Shown here in pieces: positions 49,463-60,016 of a DNA stretch of 64,000 bases. Made by a program: the position numbers and the translations under genes. Source of the stretch: Opitutales bacterium (GTDB taxonomy: Bacteria > Verrucomicrobiota > Verrucomicrobiia > Opitutales > PNEW01); NCBI GenBank assembly GCA_965197745.1, contig CBDANS010000006.1, positions 864,001-928,000 of the forward strand, read 5' to 3'. A model generated the notes under the pieces. The model was not told where the DNA came from and made no database searches. It saw nothing but the letters and a program-made list of their open reading frames with translations. Each line of letters opens with the position of its first letter. The stretch's first letter is position 1.

Positions 49463-49508
49463 TTGTCATTGCGAGGATCCCGCAAACGCGGGAGACGTGG
49501 CAATCCAG
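49463..49508. repeat. REP/RPE-like palindromic repeat
   Basis: TTGTCATTGCGAGGA-hairpin-GACGTGGCAATCC; related copies at 52418-52548. Confidence 0.8.
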
Positions 49509-52300: not shown

Positions 52301-52741
52301 TGGAGCGGGCTGTCCCTTGTACCCTTCTTATAATTTGTGCTTTAAAGATTAGTACGCGCCAGGGACAGCACGTTCCACCTAATCTCACTGCTTATTTCTT
52401 AGCACTTACCTTCTCACTTGTCATTGCGAGGAGCAACGCGACGCGGCTACCGAGCAACAGCGACATCTTCCATTCCAGGCAAATGTCGGTTGCGTATTGA
52501 CATCCCCCTGGATTGCCACAGTCGGTAACACCTCCTTCGCAATGACAAAAGGAGAAATTTAGAAATCGTTTTGTCTGCAATTGGCCCTGAGCGCATGCCG
52601 AAGGGAGGGCTCATTGAAGGCCAAGCTGCAACAAGCATCCAGGATCAGGGATCCTACCCCTGCATGATTTTCTTAACCACAATCACCTTGACTCGCCGTA
52701 GTTCTCAGACATTAGCGTGCTAGGGACAGCCCGCTCCACCT
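52301..52741. repeat. Mosaic of REP-like hairpins
   Basis: TGGAGCGGGCTGTCCCT (52301) inverted against AGGGACAGCCCGCTCCA (~52722), partial copy ~52360, inverted RPE-like pair 52418-52548, CCCTGAGC..CGAAGGG ~52585-52604. Confidence 0.75.
52448..52501 (+). mobile_element. 54-nt structured mini-insertion within a REP-like repeat
   Basis: Interrupts the GGC(A)ATCC arm that is intact in sister copies; begins TACCGAG, ends GAC. Confidence 0.6.
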
Positions 52742-52864
52742 CGCTCTCAGTGTTTGTCGTTTACTTCCATCCACTTATTCCAGATGTCACGATAGGTGCT
52801 CTCGAGGCGCCTTGTAAAACTTTCTTCGTCCATCAGGGGGCTTTTCTCCATGCGTGATCGAAGG

Positions 52865-54182
52865 TGGTCGTGACCACGAAAACTGGTACACTTGAAAAGT
52901 TAGTCTGGGTAACCTAGAAAGGACTCAGACAATGAAAGGCAAAAGATACACAACTGAAGAGAAAATACGGATGCTGCGGCAGGCGGACAAAGGGAAAACG
53001 ATCCTGGAAGCATGCCGCGAGAACAACATTAGCGAACAGACTTTCCACCGCTGGAAGCGTGAGTTTGGGATGATTGATGTCGACCAGGCCAAGCGGATGA
53101 AGGAACTCTTTGAAGGAGAACGCGCGGTTAAAACGGATGCTGGCGGACAAGATGCTGGGGATAGAGATCCTGCAGGAGACCCTCGAAAAAAAACTGTAAG
53201 CCCTGGGCACAAGCGGCAAGTGGCAGAGAGACTTGTGGCTCGGGGCCAGTGTTCGATGCGAGCGGGGTGCCGGTACTTTCGGCTGCACCGTTCCACCTAT
53301 GCGTATAAGGCGAAGCATCCGGATGCTTGGTTAATGAAACTGAAGGCGGCAGTAAGGCGGTTATCACGGCAATATGCCAGGTGGGGCTATCCGAAGATCA
53401 CGAAGCTGTTGAAAGACGAAGGCTGGGAGGTGGGTAAACGTCTCGTGCAAGGTCTACGACGCGAACTGGGCTTGGCGATCCCCCAACGCAAGCCAAGACG
53501 TCGGGGCAGGGGTGTTTCCACCGGGCTGCCGACCAAGGCCGAACATCCCGGCCATGTTTGGACCTGGGATTTTATCCACGATAAGACGGTCCGCGGTGGC
53601 AGTTTAAAAATGTTGACCGTGCTCGATGAGTACACCCGCGAGTGTCGAGTGATCCATGTTGATCGCCATATCAATGCGGAAACGGTGCGCGGTATCATGC
53701 AAAAACTGCTTGCCCGTCATGGGCCGCCACAATATATTCGCAGTGACAACGGTTCCGTTCCGAGGAGCGAAGCGACGACATGCGAAGCCATTCATTGAAA
53801 AGGAATTGAGAGCCTGGCTAACTGCGATGAAAATCAAAACCCTCTATATCGAACCAGGAAGCCCTTGGCAGAACGGATACATTGAATCGTTCCATGCCCG
53901 TTTTCGCGAGGAGTGTTTAAACCGTGAACAGTTATGGACTTTGACCGAAGCCCGCGTGGTCATCGAAGATTGGCGCTGGCTTTACAATCATGTCCGACCC
54001 CACCGCAGCCTCGGCAACATCACTCCACGGCACTTCACTGAAAACCTCAATACCGAAGGCTCGGGCTCCATTCGGGCTACGCCCTCATTGCGCCCAAGCC
54101 TTGACTTCCTCTACCAACTTAACTTCAACATTAACCTCTCCAGACTAACTCTCCCGGTGGACCAGTTTGTGTAACCCGACCA
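52865..54182 (+). mobile_element. IS3-family element, inactivated (copy 1)
   Basis: ~44-bp imperfect TIRs TGGTCG...GTTAGTCTGG; OrfA HTH, A8 slippery site, OrfB WTWDF/SDNG/PWQNGYIES; frameshifts; no TSD seen. Confidence 0.92.
53758..53789 (+). mobile_element. 32-nt hairpin mini-insertion in IS3 OrfB
   Basis: TTCCGAGGAGCGAAGCGACGACATGCGAAGCC between DNGS and FI; shifts the frame. Confidence 0.75.
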
Positions 54183-54792
54183 CAGACAAAGACAAATATC
54201 TTTAAGGGACAGATTTTGCTGCGGGGAAATTATATAAAAATAATTCATGCTTTCGTACGCTCGATTGAATGGTTTCGAGGCCGATGGGGTTTTTAAAGCT
54301 TCGAAGCTTAATTTGATTTGCCCGTGAAGGGGTCTGAGTGCCTCGAGAAAGGGCGTTTGCATCTTAAGGCAGGGAATGGGTTGTTTCATAACGAAGGAGC
54401 ATCGTACATTGTAGAGCAAATTTAAGCGGGGTTCTTTTTAAATAATTTTGGCTGTCAAACCTTGCCCTTTGTAAATATATTTTCCAGCGAGCAAATCGAT
54501 ATATGGACTAAGGGTCGGTCAGCTGATCGACCCCCCCGCCCCCTAGTAACATGATTTACTCTCTCTTCGATTTATTTCAAAATTAGCGGACACCCGCGAT
54601 GTTAGACGGCGAACTTTTTCTTGATGGGAATACCCTTAAATTATGGGTCGCAATGGGTGTGGCAGTAGTATGTCAACACCGGCTTAATCAGGGTTTTAAA
54701 CTGGGGCTTACTCCTTAATTATCGATTATCTAAGACCGTTAGGAAATTATAAGTTAAAAATAATATATTGATGATCAATAACTTACAAACTT

Positions 54793-54820
54793 ACTAGACA
54801 TAATAGTTGTTGTGCGGTTC
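54793..54820 (-). other. dif-like XerC/D recombination site
   Basis: GAACCGCACAA-CAACTA-TTATGTCTAGT, an 11-6-11 layout resembling GGTGCGCATAA-TGTATA-TTATGTTAAAT. Confidence 0.5.
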
Positions 54821-55355
54821 ACCTTCTAAGACCTCCTCTCGGTGCCGTCCTCTTTTGGTCCACGCACACTGGCGCTGATAACGGTCTGCTCAGGCAACCT
54901 GAGCAAGGAGCAGTCACTCTTTTTTAAGTGTGTCCACAGGTTGGCCTTCATTGCGGACAACCTACAATATCACTTAATCAATGGGCAGATCGATTAGAGA
55001 GGATCGTGTCGATCCTCCCTCTCCTTTTTTAGTGGTCTACTTTTCACCAGAGTTAGTGCCAGAAAAAAAATGATAATATTGACAGCAGCAATTTGCGCGC
55101 AAAAAAAATGCCCCACCTCTCAGATTCAGGAAGCATCTGAAAACAGCGACGGAACAGTTGCCCCTCGAAATAAAATCTGTCATGAAAAACTGTAAAATGC
55201 AGTTGCGAAGCAACGGTTTGTCCAGGAGCTATCCTTGGGTTCGATAAATCAGTCTCGTCATACACGACAGGATTCTATGAAATGGTGCCGAAAGTAAACT
55301 TCTTACCCAAACTCGTGTCAGGCAAGTAAGGTGGAGTTATGGGAGCTATGAACCG

Positions 55356-56269
55356 ATGAATATACTTCAAGAGATGTTGAATTCCGTTTTAGCAGATTCC
55401 GACTTTGACAAATACTCTGACGATCTGCATGCAGCGTCAGGCGATATTATTCCTAGGATTGCCAACAAAACTGCAGAATCTATATTAACCAGACATCTCC
55501 TTCCCCTATTCATCTCAACAGATTTAGAAGCAGGAACCGATTTCAACCGCGAGTTCCGCAACGCCGTCGTGCGGTCAGGTGATACTGTATTTGAGGCACT
55601 TACCAGGATGCACGCCCGACCGTGCCAGGTATCATCTGCCATTCTCGTCTTACGGCGTACCGGTTATGCATACGACACGCTCGCACGGTGGCGAACCCTG
55701 CATGAAATTTCAGCGATGAGTTCTCTTATAAGTAAGCATGGTAAGGAACTAGCAGAAAAATATCTGCTGCACGATACCATACAGCGATATAAGATAGCAT
55801 GTCAGCACCAGAAATATAAAGAGCAATTAATGAGGAACCAATTACGCAGGAGGAATTTGACAGTCTCAAGTCAGAACACGACCAGCTCGTAGCTCGATTC
55901 GGCGAGTCGATAAGAAGGAATACGGCTGGGCAACTTCAATACTTGGAAAAGATCTTCCCACGATAAGCGACATTGAAAAACACGCTAACTTGGAACATAT
56001 GAGGCCTTATTACAGAATGGCGAGTGACAACGTGCACGCAAACTCTCACGGCGATTACTTTAGGATAGGGTTGAGTCAGATTCTTCACGATGATGATCTA
56101 CTTCTAGCTGGCGCAAGCAGTATGGGGTTGGCTACTCCTACTCATTCTACTGGGATTGCATTAAACCAAATAACCTCGAATTTGCTTTTAAATGTGTTGA
56201 ACTTCGACTGCTTAGTCATCTCAAATACACTCCTTAAATTAGTACATGAGATTTTGAAAGTATTCCTTG
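55356..56269 (+). pseudogene. DUF5677-like protein, frameshifted and cut by an IS
   Basis: ARWRTLHE in ORF 55356-55892; YYRMASDNVHAN in ORF from 55990; 3' end runs into the IS3 terminus. Confidence 0.55.
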
Positions 56270-56656
56270 TGATTGGACCCCGTTTTTCGTACCAATTATT
56301 ATGTGAGAGAGTTACCGGGTATTAATGGTTTTAGGATTGATGTATATGAGAGATCTTGGCGCAGTGAGGGCGTAGCCCGAACGCGGCCAAGAGCGGAAAG
56401 GAATGTGACAAACTCTTGTGGGCTTTTAAAGCCTAATCGACTGTGGGGATGTTCATTGTTATAGGTCTGACGCCATTGTTCTATTAGCACTTGCGCTTCA
56501 GCCACGCTGAGCAACACTTCACGGTTCAAACACTCATCGCGTAAGCGGTTGTGAAACGACTCGATGAAACCGTTTTGCCAGGGACTGCCCGGATCGATAT
56601 ATATCGCCTTGATCTTTTTGTCGGACAACCACTGCTGCACCTGATGAGCAATGAAT

Positions 56657-56688
56657 GGCTTCGCATGTCGTCGCTTCGCTCCTCGGAA
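56657..56688 (-). mobile_element. 32-nt hairpin mini-insertion in IS3 OrfB
   Basis: Exact reverse complement of 53758-53789 at the homologous codon. Confidence 0.75.
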
Positions 56689-56816
56689 CACTGCCGTTGT
56701 CACTGCGGATATAGCTAGGAACTCCCTCTTCATCGATGGTTTCGCTGAGTACCGAGAGAACATCGGTTGAGGTGAGCTGTCGAGCTACCCGGATGCGTAA
56801 ACATTTACGCGTATAT

Positions 56817-56859
56817 GTCTTCGCTTCGCTTGAGTGTCGTCGCTTTCAGCTCCTCGGTA
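56817..56859 (-). mobile_element. 43-nt hairpin mini-insertion in IS3 OrfB
   Basis: TACCGAGGAGCTGAAAGCGACGACACTCAAGCGAAGCGAAGAC between LID and YTR; adds an in-frame TGA. Confidence 0.7.
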
Positions 56860-57622
56860 CATCGATCAAGGTCATCATCTTTAGCATACCGCCATTGTCT
56901 GTACGATCATGGACAAAGTCCCAGGACCAGACGTGATTGCGACCGGTTGCTTTAGTAGGGAGCCCAGTAGAGATCCCCTGACGGTGTCTACGCTTTTTTG
57001 GTGGCTTTACCTGTAAGCCCGAAGAACGTCGCACTGCCTGTACAAATTTCCTGCTTGCCGCCCAACCTTCTTTCACCAGCAAGGCACGAATGCGCCGGTA
57101 ACCGTAACGGGGATGTTCCCAGGACAAGGTCAAAATCCGCTCGGCCAATTGCTGAGCCTTCTTACTGGCCTGCTTGGGTCGGTAGCTGTACGTTGACCAA
57201 CTGAGGCTGAGATAAGCACAAGCCCTCTAAAACGAGCACAGCCCCTTCTCAGCCGCATCTTTTACTGCTCGCTTCTTCTGCTTTGGGCTCACCATTTTTT
57301 TGAGAGCGTTTCCTCCAACACCCGAAGCTTGAGCATTTGATCAGCGAGCATCTTCTTCAGCTCCGTATTCTCCTTTTCCAGCTCTTTAAATCGCTTCGCA
57401 TCAGCCAGCTCCAAGTTGCCATACTTTTTGCCCCAGCGATAGAAGGTCTGTTCACTTAGGTTGTTGCCGTGGCAGACTTCCTGCACGGTTTTGCCCGTAT
57501 CGGGCTGCCGCAGTATTGCTATGATCTGTTCTGTTGTATATCTTTTTCTTTTCATTGAGGTTATCTGTTTATCCCGATAACCTCTCTCTGTTAATGATAC
57601 CATTTTTGGGGGTCACTCCAAT

Positions 57623-60016
57623 GCAAAGTCTCCTTCTGAAAATATCTACGATTGGATTGATCAGTGCGCTCATTATTGCCTCAAATTGAATCAGAAAAAT
57701 AAAACAGTACACTATTTTTTATTATCAAATGGTCTCAAAACAGGACTGTTTGTATGGGATCAAGCAAATGCAATACTTGAGCTTGGTTTTGAGGATTTCT
57801 ATTTAGGAGGTGAACTCTATGAGAAACTTAGGAATATTATCTGTGTTGATACGTTTAAAAAAGGACTGGGGGCACCTGATCCAGGTAGAAATATTCTATT
57901 ACGTAAGATTCATAAAGAAGAAGCACAAAAAGTCTTTATAAACTGTCACAAGTATATTTGGAATACCGAGAAAAGGGGCCCACTATCGGCATTTACAGAG
58001 TTCGTAAAGTTGATATTCCTTAAATTGTGGAACGATAGAATTTTGCACGAGAATTTTCGTCCCGATTATTCAGGTAAGTTACTTGTCCCGCAATCTGCTA
58101 ATACTTTCTCAATTTTGTGGATAGAATCCAGAGAGAAAGACCACGGCTCCCCGGTAAACGATATCTCTTTCAAGAACCTGATAACACATATTGAAGACGA
58201 TATAGACAAACGGAATAAAAAGAGAATTTTTGATCAGAATGAACAGATTGAGTTGAAGCCTACAACAATTAAAGGAATTGTAAAAAAACTTGAAAAAATA
58301 GATCTTTACGGAATCGATGAAGATTTAAATGGGAGGTTGTTTGAGACCTTTTTGAATGCGACAATGCGAGGTCAGGCATTGGGGCAATATTTTACACCAC
58401 GAAGCATTGTTTTACTTGCTACCGAATTGGCTGAATTGAGGACAGATTCAAATTATATTGAAAAGGTTTTAGATGGTAGCTGTGGGACAGGTGGATTCTT
58501 GATAGAAGCCATGTCAATTATGAGAAACAATATTCGTGAGAATGATTCTTACTCGATTCAAGAAAAAAAGAAATTAATAGAGGTAATTTGCAATGAAAAG
58601 ATATTTGGAATAGATGCGGCATCCGAGCCAAATCTGGCAAAGATATCAAGGATAAATATGTATCTGCATGGGGATGGAGGCAGCCATATCTATTTTGCGG
58701 ACGGTTTGATAAAAAATATTCAGGTCGATAAAACTGATCCGCGGGAACTACAACGGGAAATTGAGGAAATGAAGCATGAGTTTGGTCCCAGTTCTTTTGA
58801 TGTTGTTTTAACCAATCCCCCTTTCTCAATGTGGTACGAGGAAAAGAATGAGTCTCAAAAACATATACTTGAGCAATACAACCTAACCCAATATAAAACA
58901 AAACCCCCGAGAACACGACTAAGAGGAAGTGCACTTTTTATCGAACGATATTGCGATTTACTACGACCAGGGGGCAAACTGATCACTGTTTTGGATGAAA
59001 CTGTATTATCTTCAGGACAATATTCTTACCTGAGAGATTTCATCCGAGAAAAGTTTATCATTCGAGCTGTGATCTCATTGCATGGTGATGCATTTCAGAT
59101 GGCGAAAGCCAGGGTCAAAACTGCTTTAGTATATTTACAAAAGAAAAAATATCCGGATGATGACCAACCAGCTGCATTTATGTACTCTTCTATTAGATTA
59201 GGTGTAGATGATATGCCAATCACAACTAATCCAGAAAAGGTGAAAAGTGCTCGTGAATTGGCAAGGGAAGAAATCAAAACAATTCTGGAGCTCTATAAAA
59301 GATACAGAAAGGGCGAAAAGGGTGAGTGGTTCGTCCAAACAGCAAACCTGAACGATCGCTTGGACGTTAAGTCATGTGTGGATATGAGAGGCCGGATGAT
59401 TGAACGCTGGGAAAAGGGAAGTTACGAGGTTAGTTCGCTCGGCGAGCTGTTGACACCCCAAAATGATACTGTAATGCCAAAAGATAATCCAAACAAGGAA
59501 TTCAGAATACTCGAAATCACGTACTCGGGCAGGTGTTATATAAAAGAAAAGCGAGCTGGACGAAATATTAACTATAAAAAAATGACGGTAGTACATACTG
59601 GGGACCTGATATTTTCGAGTTATAATACTTTTCAAGGTGCAATGGGTTATGCAACAGAGGAAATTGATGGCGCGGTAGCATCAAATAGTTACATCGTTAC
59701 ACGTGCGAATAATATAGAAGATTCCCTTTATTTATGGTCTATTCTAAGAACAACAGAAATTCGTGCAGAATTTCTTACCTCTGCAATCGGGATGGGTAGG
59801 CAAACAGTAAAATGGGATAAGATTTGCACAGTCCAAGTTCCATTATTGCATCCAAGTCAAAGAGAAGCTATCGGACAGAGAGTAATGGAGCATTGGGAAG
59901 CAGAAAAAAGGGCGAAGGATGGAATAAGCGCGATCTCAAGAGAACTGCACAACAAATTTGATGTTGAGTCTCTAAGTTCACAAAAACGGTTTTTAGGGGC
60001 AAAACCACCCAAATAA
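57623..60016 (+). CDS. Fused restriction-modification enzyme (N6-adenine MTase plus specificity domain, type IIG-like), 5'-truncated by IS3
   Basis: GQYFTPR, DGSCGTGGF, TNPPF; frame open upstream of 57686 as AKSPSENIYDWIDQCAHY (remnant of an HsdR_N-like nuclease motif). Confidence 0.85.
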   Translation, partial: AKSPSENIYDWIDQCAHYCLKLNQKNKTVHYFLLSNGLKTGLFVWDQANAILELGFEDFYLGGELYEKLRNIICVDTFKKGLGAPDPGRNILLRKIHKEEAQKVFINCHKYIWNTEKRGPLSAFTEFVKLIFLKLWNDRILHENFRPDYSGKLLVPQSANTFSILWIESREKDHGSPVNDISFKNLITHIEDDIDKRNKKRIFDQNEQIELKPTTIKGIVKKLEKIDLYGIDEDLNGRLFETFLNATMRGQALGQYFTPRSIVLLATELAELRTDSNYIEKVLDGSCGTGGFLIEAMSIMRNNIRENDSYSIQEKKKLIEVICNEKIFGIDAASEPNLAKISRINMYLHGDGGSHIYFADGLIKNIQVDKTDPRELQREIEEMKHEFGPSSFDVVLTNPPFSMWYEEKNESQKHILEQYNLTQYKTKPPRTRLRGSALFIERYCDLLRPGGKLITVLDETVLSSGQYSYLRDFIREKFIIRAVISLHGDAFQMAKARVKTALVYLQKKKYPDDDQPAAFMYSSIRLGVDDMPITTNPEKVKSARELAREEIKTILELYKRYRKGEKGEWFVQTANLNDRLDVKSCVDMRGRMIERWEKGSYEVSSLGELLTPQNDTVMPKDNPNKEFRILEITYSGRCYIKEKRAGRNINYKKMTVVHTGDLIFSSYNTFQGAMGYATEEIDGAVASNSYIVTRANNIEDSLYLWSILRTTEIRAEFLTSAIGMGRQTVKWDKICTVQVPLLHPSQREAIGQRVMEHWEAEKRAKDGISAISRELHNKFDVESLSSQKRFLGAKPPK

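Follow-up and report, generated by a model that had tools for sequence, protein, structure and literature searches.

How does one short stretch of DNA come to occupy the same codon of two transposase genes that have otherwise diverged widely? The question is raised by a 64,000-nt stretch of an Opitutales genome (the window; contig C6, positions 864001-928000), which belongs to an assembly of 7 contigs and 4.45 Mb that is 92% complete (G000). The window holds two insertion sequence (IS) elements of the IS3 family, here called A and B, and in the transposase gene of each a mini-insert lies in a glutamate codon close to the codon for the second catalytic aspartate. We call the family to which this insert belongs X, and alpha, beta, gamma, delta and epsilon denote the sites in IS3 transposase genes where its members are found; the site shared by A and B is gamma. 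X is a discrete and derived insert that obeys one junction rule at every site, near-identical filled and empty copies coexist, and the IS copies undergo recombination among themselves, for which X is one of the sites. We consider it about an even call that X is a miniature, site-specific, non-autonomous insert, which breaks the transposase frame and spreads both with IS copies and, in a homing-like manner, from copy to copy.

Bacterial genomes commonly hold very small dispersed repeats, whose movement is largely obscure. X is a new variant among these repeats, and its alleles are unusually informative: dozens of near-identical sites, filled or empty, make clean before-and-after pairs, from which an exact junction rule and a target that resembles a tRNA loop can be read. 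Either broken copies have a systematic advantage, by moving in trans or by a conversion drive that disables the transposase, or bacteria have an unrecognised means of clearing tiny inserts from their messages, and either answer bears on how genomes restrain insertion sequences.

The insert shared by elements A and B

The two elements, their reading frames and their inserts lie in the window as follows.

52865..54182, + strand: IS3-family element A, 1318 bp, terminal repeats TGGTCGTGACCACG... and ...CCCGACCA, recognised from blastn copies and ends, with HTH_Tnp_1, HTH_21 and rve/rve_3 domains.
52932..53798, + strand: truncated transposase frame of A, 288 codons, with the helix-turn-helix (HTH) and the first two catalytic Asp, ending ...SDNGS-VPRSEATTCEAIH-stop.
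53758..53790, + strand: mini-insert gamma in A, 33 nt (TTCCGAGG...GAAGCCA) replacing AG/AA of a Glu codon, net +31, from the exact match and empty/filled pairs.
53791..54174, + strand: remaining, C-terminal part of the A transposase, read in frame +1 (FIEKEL...), rve_3, with the catalytic Glu in GYIESF.
56270..57620, - strand: IS3-family element B, 1351 bp, terminal repeats TGGAGTGACCCCCA... and ...GGGGTCCAATCA, recognised from copies, ends and domains.
56299..56763, - strand: frame with the C-terminal part of the B OrfB, downstream of gamma (FIAHQVQQWL...).
56656..56688, - strand: mini-insert gamma in B, identical to the copy in A.
56816..56859, - strand: mini-insert beta in B, 44 nt (TACCGAGGAGCTGAAAGCGACGACACTCAAGCGAAGCGAAGACA) replacing two bases, AA, of the LID-E-YTR Glu codon, net +42, in frame and with a TGA.
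57289..57603, - strand: OrfA of B, HTH_Tnp_1.

Membership of the IS3 family rests on an N-terminal HTH and an rve (DDE) core, which are found both in a copy whose 403-aa frame is intact and in the fragments encoded in the window. In the 403-aa frame, which comes from an empty copy, 36 residues lead from the second Asp, in SDNG, to the catalytic Glu, in GYIESF, a spacing of the DD(35)E type. The first-pass annotation of the window, made from its letters, had taken SDNG to carry the second catalytic Asp, and this is how the intact frame reads; the Glu hit at gamma is the E of DNGSEF, four residues past that Asp. Both elements begin TGG... and end ...CCA with imperfect terminal inverted repeats, and target duplications of 3-4 nt are present at several copies, not at all of them.

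The exact 33-mer GTTCCGAGGAGCGAAGCGACGACATGCGAAGCC (GTTCC...GAAGCC) lies at 53757-53789 (+) and 56657-56689 (-), and no match with up to 3 mismatches was found in any of 100 shuffles of the sequence. The two copies form an inverted pair in window coordinates because A and B occupy opposite strands; they are identical when each is read along its own gene. Past the insert, identity of A and B runs on for a further 8 bases on the 3' side (ATTCATTG, codons F-I), and on the 5' side it ends at the boundary (GGTTCC-G vs GGCAGT-G). Against 34/34 identical columns across the insert, A and B agree in 732 of 1367 columns (53.5%) overall, and in 45 of 98 to the left and 47 of 79 to the right of gamma (100 columns taken on each side). 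Their proteins are 51-56% identical and their terminal repeats differ. The annotation had described an identical insert in two divergent IS3 elements with different termini and visibly diverged proteins, and these comparisons confirm the description. It had also claimed a net gain of 31 nt that inactivates both genes unless removed; the size and the break of the frame hold against the empty copies: in the window copy of A, the upstream frame stops 11 codons on and the rve_3 part resumes in the +1 frame.

Five sites, one junction rule and recombination among copies

Throughout the genome, the gamma insert (allowing up to 3 substitutions) occurs in 73 copies, and all 73 lie between SDNG-x and F-I of IS3 OrfB-like sequence. 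Gamma-empty copies read GGTTCC GAG TTT ATT, GGCAGT GAG TTC ATT or GGCAGT GAA TTC ATT, and the filled allele reads G-[TTCC...GAAGCC]-A-TTC, so that 33 nt stand in for AG or AA of the Glu codon. The alignment and the counts of insert states cover 40 A-like and 34 B-like full-length IS3 copies of this genome (n=74), in which X occupies five sites.

Alpha, just past the A-run at the OrfA/OrfB overlap: net +23 nt, filled in 6/40 A, in the opposite orientation.
Beta, LID-E-YTR: net +42 nt, filled in 2/40 A and 28/34 B, in frame and with a TGA.
Gamma, SDNGS-E-FI: net +31 nt, filled in 35/40 A and 32/34 B, the site originally noted.
Delta, PW-Q-NG: net +41/42 nt, filled in 1/40 A and 10/34 B.
Epsilon, RD-E-CLN: net +35 nt, filled in 8/34 B.

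Members of X are 23-45 nt long, start 5' with T[A/T]CCGAG and end 3' with (C)CA. Empty/filled pairs at all five sites follow one junction rule, by which S-AR-W becomes S-[X]-A-W. The annotation had put forward replacement of an A, which was nearly right; across all sites it is the AR dinucleotide that is replaced, by the insert plus an A. The core of the branch represented here is CCGAGGAGC-loop-GCGACGACA-N-GCGAAGC. X is purine-rich, with GCGANG repeated; beta contains the stop TGA, epsilon contains TAG, and delta contains none. Each site has its own variant of X, common to different lineages and families at that site. Outside IS3, the beta/gamma/epsilon type was found in this genome only in three units adjoining tRNA genes, and a sister type, TACCGAG-[co-varying short stem]-GACATCTTCCA, lies within 52 hairpin repeats at GC^AA^TCC. 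X is not a miniature inverted-repeat transposable element, since its ends, T[A/T]CCGAG and CCA, do not form an inverted repeat and two target bases are replaced, not duplicated. A search for cargo in the variable loop of X found solo halves only at about chance numbers. In a relative from another genus of the same family (G002), four copies of the large B lineage (L060, L063, L068 and L071) have, in the leucine-zipper region of OrfA, a 27-nt net insert with an in-frame TGA (TTCACGAGCGCAAGCGAG...) that resembles a member of X, and one copy in G000 has a different insert at that place.

No single contiguous deletion converts a filled site to the empty GAG or GAA; therefore, the empty state is ancestral and the filled state derived. 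The states of the 74 copies form a mosaic (gamma only, 29; beta and gamma, 24; none, 4; four inserts, 4; and others), with gamma filled in 67. A single clade of insert-bearing elements, or a simple gene-conversion tract, had been named in the annotation as outcomes that would speak against its proposal; the insert is not confined to one clade, and the flanks do not resemble such a tract: in a tree computed without the insert columns, gamma-filled copies occur throughout both families and in most sub-lineages, and the 5' flank already differs 2-6 nt from the insert. Four fully empty A copies are nested within a filled sub-lineage and carry the intact 403-aa transposase frame. Apart from the insert, the one difference between these empty copies and their filled sisters is a linked TTT/TTC change 3 nt downstream, and the empty copies lie on two haplotypes that are shared with filled copies. 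Other polymorphisms of that sub-lineage also show all four gametes; thus, recombination among copies is common and is alone able to mix filled and empty states, and the case for a short-patch conversion centred specifically on X is weakened.

Between the families, and between sub-lineages of B, identity is limited to the insert and the flanks diverge within 2-10 nt, and the positions of X that usually vary (the first two bases, the loop and the spacer) are identical between A and B. This argues for recent precise copying between IS copies rather than ancient inheritance. Chimeric A/B copies join exactly at X, and the inserts act as recombination points. Individual rearranged copies were recorded as well: chimeras of A and B at gamma, in either order, at C7:1673744 of this genome and in an Opitutales metagenome-assembled genome (MAG; L028, L031 and L043), and an IS3 copy at C6:1393320-1393345 in which the start of gamma is fused to the end of epsilon and the intervening DNA is deleted.

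tRNA-linked units and related repeats

The exact gamma insert was found in two relatives from another genus of the same family and was absent in the 38 other genomes of the order searched. A wider scan of one genome per species, with the pattern CCGAGGAGC-N1-8-GCGACGACA-N0-6-GCGAAG, gave at least 37 loci. Among the matches listed, several in GC-rich genomes look like chance, inside coding sequence, and the rest fall into two classes. One class is that of Opitutales IS3-type transposase genes. The same gamma and beta inserts recur in a named Opitutales MAG; Cerasicoccus has another variant of X at the homologous DNGP-E-F codon of another transposase, of which the same contig also holds an empty copy, and Ruficoccus has X at W-x-YNN, in a different codon phase. 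Site-specific insertion or homing into a conserved motif, as the annotation proposed, is thus supported by a discrete insert that sits in one codon of DNG-x-E-F and has a variant at the homologous codon in Cerasicoccus. The other class, again among the matches listed, consists of units that each lie beside an intact tRNA gene, from Puniceicoccaceae, Opitutaceae, Pelagicoccus, Woeseiaceae and a Lentisphaerae MAG. In these units X sits in GTTCG^AA^TCC of a partial tRNA 3' copy, or in GGTCG^AA^TGG of a partial 5' copy. When metagenomes were scanned for X at gamma, no more than 4 matches came up, all of them chance, with no X beyond the pattern.

On a Woeseiaceae contig, two X units 10.6 kb apart flank accessory genes (for an extracytoplasmic function sigma factor, FecR and a TonB receptor, for a major facilitator superfamily protein and for HipA). 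The usual home of X appears to be the T-loop sequence GTTCG^AA^TCC and the D-loop sequence GGTCG^AA^TGG in spare partial tRNA copies that mark the junctions of accessory cassettes, and the IS3 Glu codons in conserved catalytic motifs (GGTTCC GAR TTC and others) resemble this target. The arrangement is like that of the attachment junctions of islands in tRNA T-loops, in that X units lie beside a tRNA 3'-end copy that starts in the T-loop, downstream of an intact tRNA, and bound accessory cassettes. Unlike such islands, many of the tRNA-linked units are ~100 nt from the tRNA and have neither cargo nor integrase, and the IS3 insert has both junctions within 31-45 nt. No integrase was found within the 10.6-kb cassette or adjoining the three tRNA-linked units of this genome, and no neighbour gene recurs beside tRNA-linked units, apparent matches being translated repeats. 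Two recombinases on the Woeseiaceae contig lie beside two frames of ~1,040-1,090 codons, perhaps a type I restriction locus, and were not considered to be connected with X. In this genome, two intact tRNA genes (L001, C6:355530-355720; L002, C5:236530-236620) are followed by 1-2 units of ~98 nt, laid out as a hairpin, GGTTCG, X and then a tRNA 3'-end copy; their match to RtT RNA is weak and sub-threshold, at 23.7 bits against a gathering score of 45.

This genome also holds ~99 hairpin repeats (GTCATTGCGAGGAGC...GCAATCCAGG, or GTCATTGCGAGGAGC-loop-GCGACGA-AGCAATCCAGG), often as inverted doublets, which in the window lie at 52420-52546 and 49465-49505. One of them contains a relative of X.

52448..52472, + strand: related mini-insert X1 (TACCGAGCAACAGCGACATCTTCCA), within a Ssn-type hairpin repeat whose inverted partner repeat (52507-52546) is without X1.

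The ~99 repeats match the layout of the NTS/SRM repeats, which run CGTCAT-hairpin-AATCYRG and, as inverted copies, flank ssnA, the gene of a nuclease for single-stranded DNA (Chenal et al., 2025; PMC11893778). Likewise, inverted repeat copies flank four small GIY-YIG genes here (C7:483646, C7:1542004, C7:1545659 and C6:787949). The Ssn-type repeats of this genome share with X the core CGAGGAGC-loop-GCGACGA, the sister type of X lies inside 52 of them, and the tRNA-linked units align by eye end to end with SRM, down to the following AATCC. Unlike these repeats, X has neither the GTCAT tag nor the paired stem, and genomes with tRNA-linked X units are without the Ssn-type repeat tag. A functional tie between X and the Ssn nucleases, suggested by these likenesses of sequence, is only a lead.

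The very small dispersed repeats (SDR) of Nostoc and its relatives, described by Elhai and co-workers (2008; a work cited in PMC3116915), are reportedly 21-27 nt long, cause no target duplication and are nested in other repeats; they are of the same size class as X, with different sequences and hosts. Hits in catalytic codons of transposases, replacement of a dinucleotide and a tRNA-loop target are not known from that work. The closest published precedent that we found is the intragenic repetitive extragenic palindromes (REP) of Di Nocera et al. (2013; PMC3733652). According to that study, CGTC-type repeats have a CCA tail and no known transposase, and intragenic REPs are most numerous in Opitutus terrae, which belongs to the order of the present genome. 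The GTAG and CGTC palindromes, including RPE-4 and RPE-6 of Rickettsia, are like X in being tiny repeats in coding genes, with an unpaired CCA tail for the CGTC class; as that account describes them, they are palindromic, usually read through in frame and not tied to a codon (PMC3733652). X shares the CCA tail and the core with the CGTC (SRM) repeats and differs in having no tag, no paired stem and no Watson-Crick hairpin; it breaks the frame or adds a stop, takes the place of a dinucleotide and is found again and again at one codon of genes that have diverged. A literature search, with supplements outside its scope, found no description of this insert.

How filled copies came to multiply

On the reading that we prefer, X would enter a very short target, S-AR-W, and swap AR for itself plus A, with no target duplication and no inverted ends. 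Each site would be hit rarely, and X would then ride on transposing IS copies and on short-patch, homing-like copying between copies. In a transposase gene it would act as a disruption, by frameshift or in-frame stop, so filled copies would be non-autonomous, and would depend on the few intact copies for movement or have been converted once they had landed. Such intact copies were found in this genome for A and in G002 for B. We prefer this reading because it needs only known processes and fits the nested empty copies and the frequent recombination.

The success of filled lineages is the puzzle that this reading has to meet. Apart from the A copies, of which 35 are filled and 5 empty at gamma, two young bursts of B (~15 and 9 copies, the larger 99% alike) are filled at beta and gamma throughout. 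G002, which like G001 is assembled in 1-2 contigs, has 57 gamma-empty, 14 gamma-filled and 46 beta-filled sites; the beta-filled ones belong mostly to one lineage (~41 filled) whose gamma site is empty, and at least 2 near-identical beta-empty copies have an open OrfB frame of 346 codons. The IS copies are at different loci, several with 3-4 nt duplications, and therefore arrived by transposition.

Several observations weigh against a purely disruptive insert. All 34 full-length B copies, and the B-like fragments, carry at least one insert, so that no intact source of B was seen in this genome, and yet B has two bursts and ends that differ from those of A. IS3-family transposases are reported, from work on IS911, to act mainly in cis, which argues against movement in trans. 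After in-silico removal of the inserts the frames are complete in 32/40 A and 26/34 B, among them 3 of the 4 copies with four inserts. Between the two B bursts the ratio of nonsynonymous to synonymous substitution rates (dN/dS) lies at 0.08-0.15 for each segment, that after gamma in the +1 frame among them, a sign of purifying selection. That each site has its own variant is awkward for an element that moves freely, and no recombinase, Y1 transposase or other gene was found to adjoin X consistently. Taken together, the three successes of filled lineages, the uniform states within bursts and the spread of B without an intact gene are not easily explained by a miniature disruptive insert. Synonymous divergence between the B bursts is uneven along the element (dS 0.62 in OrfA, 0.56 before beta, 0.90 from beta to gamma and 0.13 after gamma), which indicates a mosaic history.

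We also looked for signs that the insert is removed or moved by a recognisable machinery. Searches of 52800-57700 and of the tRNA-linked units against Rfam (E<=1) returned none but tRNAs and two weak sub-threshold matches (RtT and a plastid untranslated region model), and the inserts fold worse than shuffled sequence (z +1.35 and +1.52). A group I or group II intron or another ribozyme was rejected on the absence of an Rfam match and of a stable fold and on a length of 31-44 nt; an intein was rejected because the net +31 shifts the frame, beta has an in-frame TGA and the insert is too short. X is like homing introns and inteins in that an identical insert sits at a conserved-motif codon of divergent genes, with empty and filled alleles and a co-converted neighbouring base. 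Unlike them, it has no ribozyme, reading frame, homing endonuclease gene or splice product and, at 31 nt, shifts the frame, so the kinship with introns and inteins that the annotation had drawn did not survive the Rfam and folding results, the varied lengths and the lack of a splice product in the RNA contigs described below. Inspection revealed no hairpin, bulge-helix-bulge-like or IRE1-like splice-site structures.

Transcript data were Logan contigs from two metatranscriptome runs and two probable DNA runs, compared with 52800-57700; the RNA runs, from another study, cover small shares of this region (0.20 and 0.06), and contigs hide rare spliced forms, strand and level. The RNA contigs contain both the filled form and the GAG-type empty form, and the latter is not a splice product because splicing of the filled form cannot yield GAG. 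The expected splice junctions, G-CA-TTC or TCC-TTC, were not found in these contigs, in which rare forms are invisible. As to enzymes, no reverse transcriptase (PF00078) was found in this genome (92% complete). A Y1 transposase of the REP-associated type (RAYT) was set aside as the mover of X, since neither of its two loci in this genome is flanked by X-like sequence, and so were the 14 tyrosine recombinases, some of which adjoin IS3 copies and none of which is linked to X.

The population patterns that trouble a disruptive insert would be well explained if X were harmless to the transposase. X could be removed by protein-dependent RNA excision at its constant ends (5' U[A/U]CCGAG ... CCA 3') or bypassed by recoding, with filled copies autonomous and empty copies rare back-conversions, which we judge rather unlikely. 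It would account for filled lineages having multiplied three times (35:5 for gamma in A; 24:0 for beta and gamma in B of this genome; ~41 against at least 2 empty for beta in G002), for the uniform states inside each burst, for the intact frames after in-silico removal and the low dN/dS downstream of inserts, and for the lack of an intact B gene in this assembly; moreover, beta and gamma share a codon phase, and in beta an in-frame AGC-UGA...AGC resembles a take-off and landing pair. However, there is no ribozyme family match and no fold, the RNA contigs are filled and contain no expected splice junction, the Ruficoccus insert is in a different codon phase, and RtcB, a possible ligase present in this genome, was not found in G001-G003, of which G001 and G002 also hold filled copies. 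The insert lengths (23, 31, 35 and 42 nt) and the differing positions of the stops exclude a single translational rule, and a translational bypass element was rejected since only beta has a pair of codons, which leaves the frames of gamma and epsilon unrestored. Mitochondrial 'byps' are mobile bypass inserts of the kind known from T4 gene 60. Such inserts are short and interrupt a coding sequence while the gene survives, and they need matched take-off and landing codons with a structured gap (bioRxiv 10.1101/2022.08.31.505936); the pair in beta does not explain gamma. Were removal from RNA nevertheless to operate, IS3 copies with up to four X would stay fully active while X spreads by homing. 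X would then be a new kind of bacterial intervening sequence, 23-45 nt long, poor in structure and with constant ends, removed or skipped by a host protein system and homing into Glu codons and tRNA-loop-like DNA, a possibility that we regard as doubtful. To our knowledge SOS splicing, the removal of DNA transposons from animal mRNAs, has no bacterial counterpart. It is a conceptual analogue, since removal at the RNA level is recognised by the ends of the element, and it is an animal process triggered by paired inverted repeats and acting on large elements (PMC12779559), whereas X has no inverted ends.

Silencing of IS3, from the side of the host or of an element, would read the disruption as the purpose: a site-specific enzyme, linked to tRNA-loop cassettes or to the Ssn-type repeats, would place X in catalytic codons, and cleavage of empty sites would drive homing. 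The targets are indeed the most conserved catalytic codons (LID-E, DNGS-E, PW-Q and RD-E), gamma is filled in nearly all of the full-length copies (67/74), identity across lineages is limited to the insert with flanks that differ within 10 nt, the base 3 nt downstream is co-converted, and the core shared with the Ssn-type repeats links X to sequences that flank the four GIY-YIG genes. We nevertheless think it improbable. Delta and epsilon exist in this genome, and yet every copy in both young bursts of B is free of them, which makes a generally efficient conversion unlikely; the four gametes point to ordinary recombination, which is sufficient to mix the states; the tRNA-linked units occur in genomes without the Ssn-type tag, and no candidate enzyme was found to adjoin X. 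That each insert goes back to an old single event in a common IS3 ancestor and was inherited, with strong selection on its sequence accounting for identity across families, we hold to be very improbable. The separate variant at each site, the presence of gamma in nearly all lineages of both families and of beta in B and two basal A lineages, and a core conserved across phyla would fit such inheritance. Against it, the variable positions of X are identical in A and B and yet vary elsewhere while the flanks are ~50% identical, a pattern that points to an insert younger than the split of A and B, and empty copies with the family-typical Glu codon occur in both families and form the majority at gamma in G002 (57 vs 14).

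Three further observations concern the IS3 copies and their surroundings. Among the A copies, alignment columns 249-251 (near 53109-53111) show a 1-nt length polymorphism, TTT vs GA, which switches between a fused frame of 415 codons and separate OrfA (100) and OrfB (354) frames; both forms occur among near-identical A copies, and the Logan contigs have one-base gaps at 53109/53111. At C7:1062100-1066385 (L050), an element of ~4 kb interrupts an IS3 copy at ATT GAA TCG (I-E-S, the catalytic Glu); it carries genes for a tyrosine integrase of 428 aa and an excisionase-like protein and a further frame of 193 codons. Two of the four empty A copies (C4:136043 and C7:1352039) have a similar integrase gene immediately upstream. 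Adjoining B in the window, a 776-aa frame at 57686-60016 (+) resembles by eye, from an NPPF-type motif, an N6-adenine DNA methylase or restriction-modification protein.

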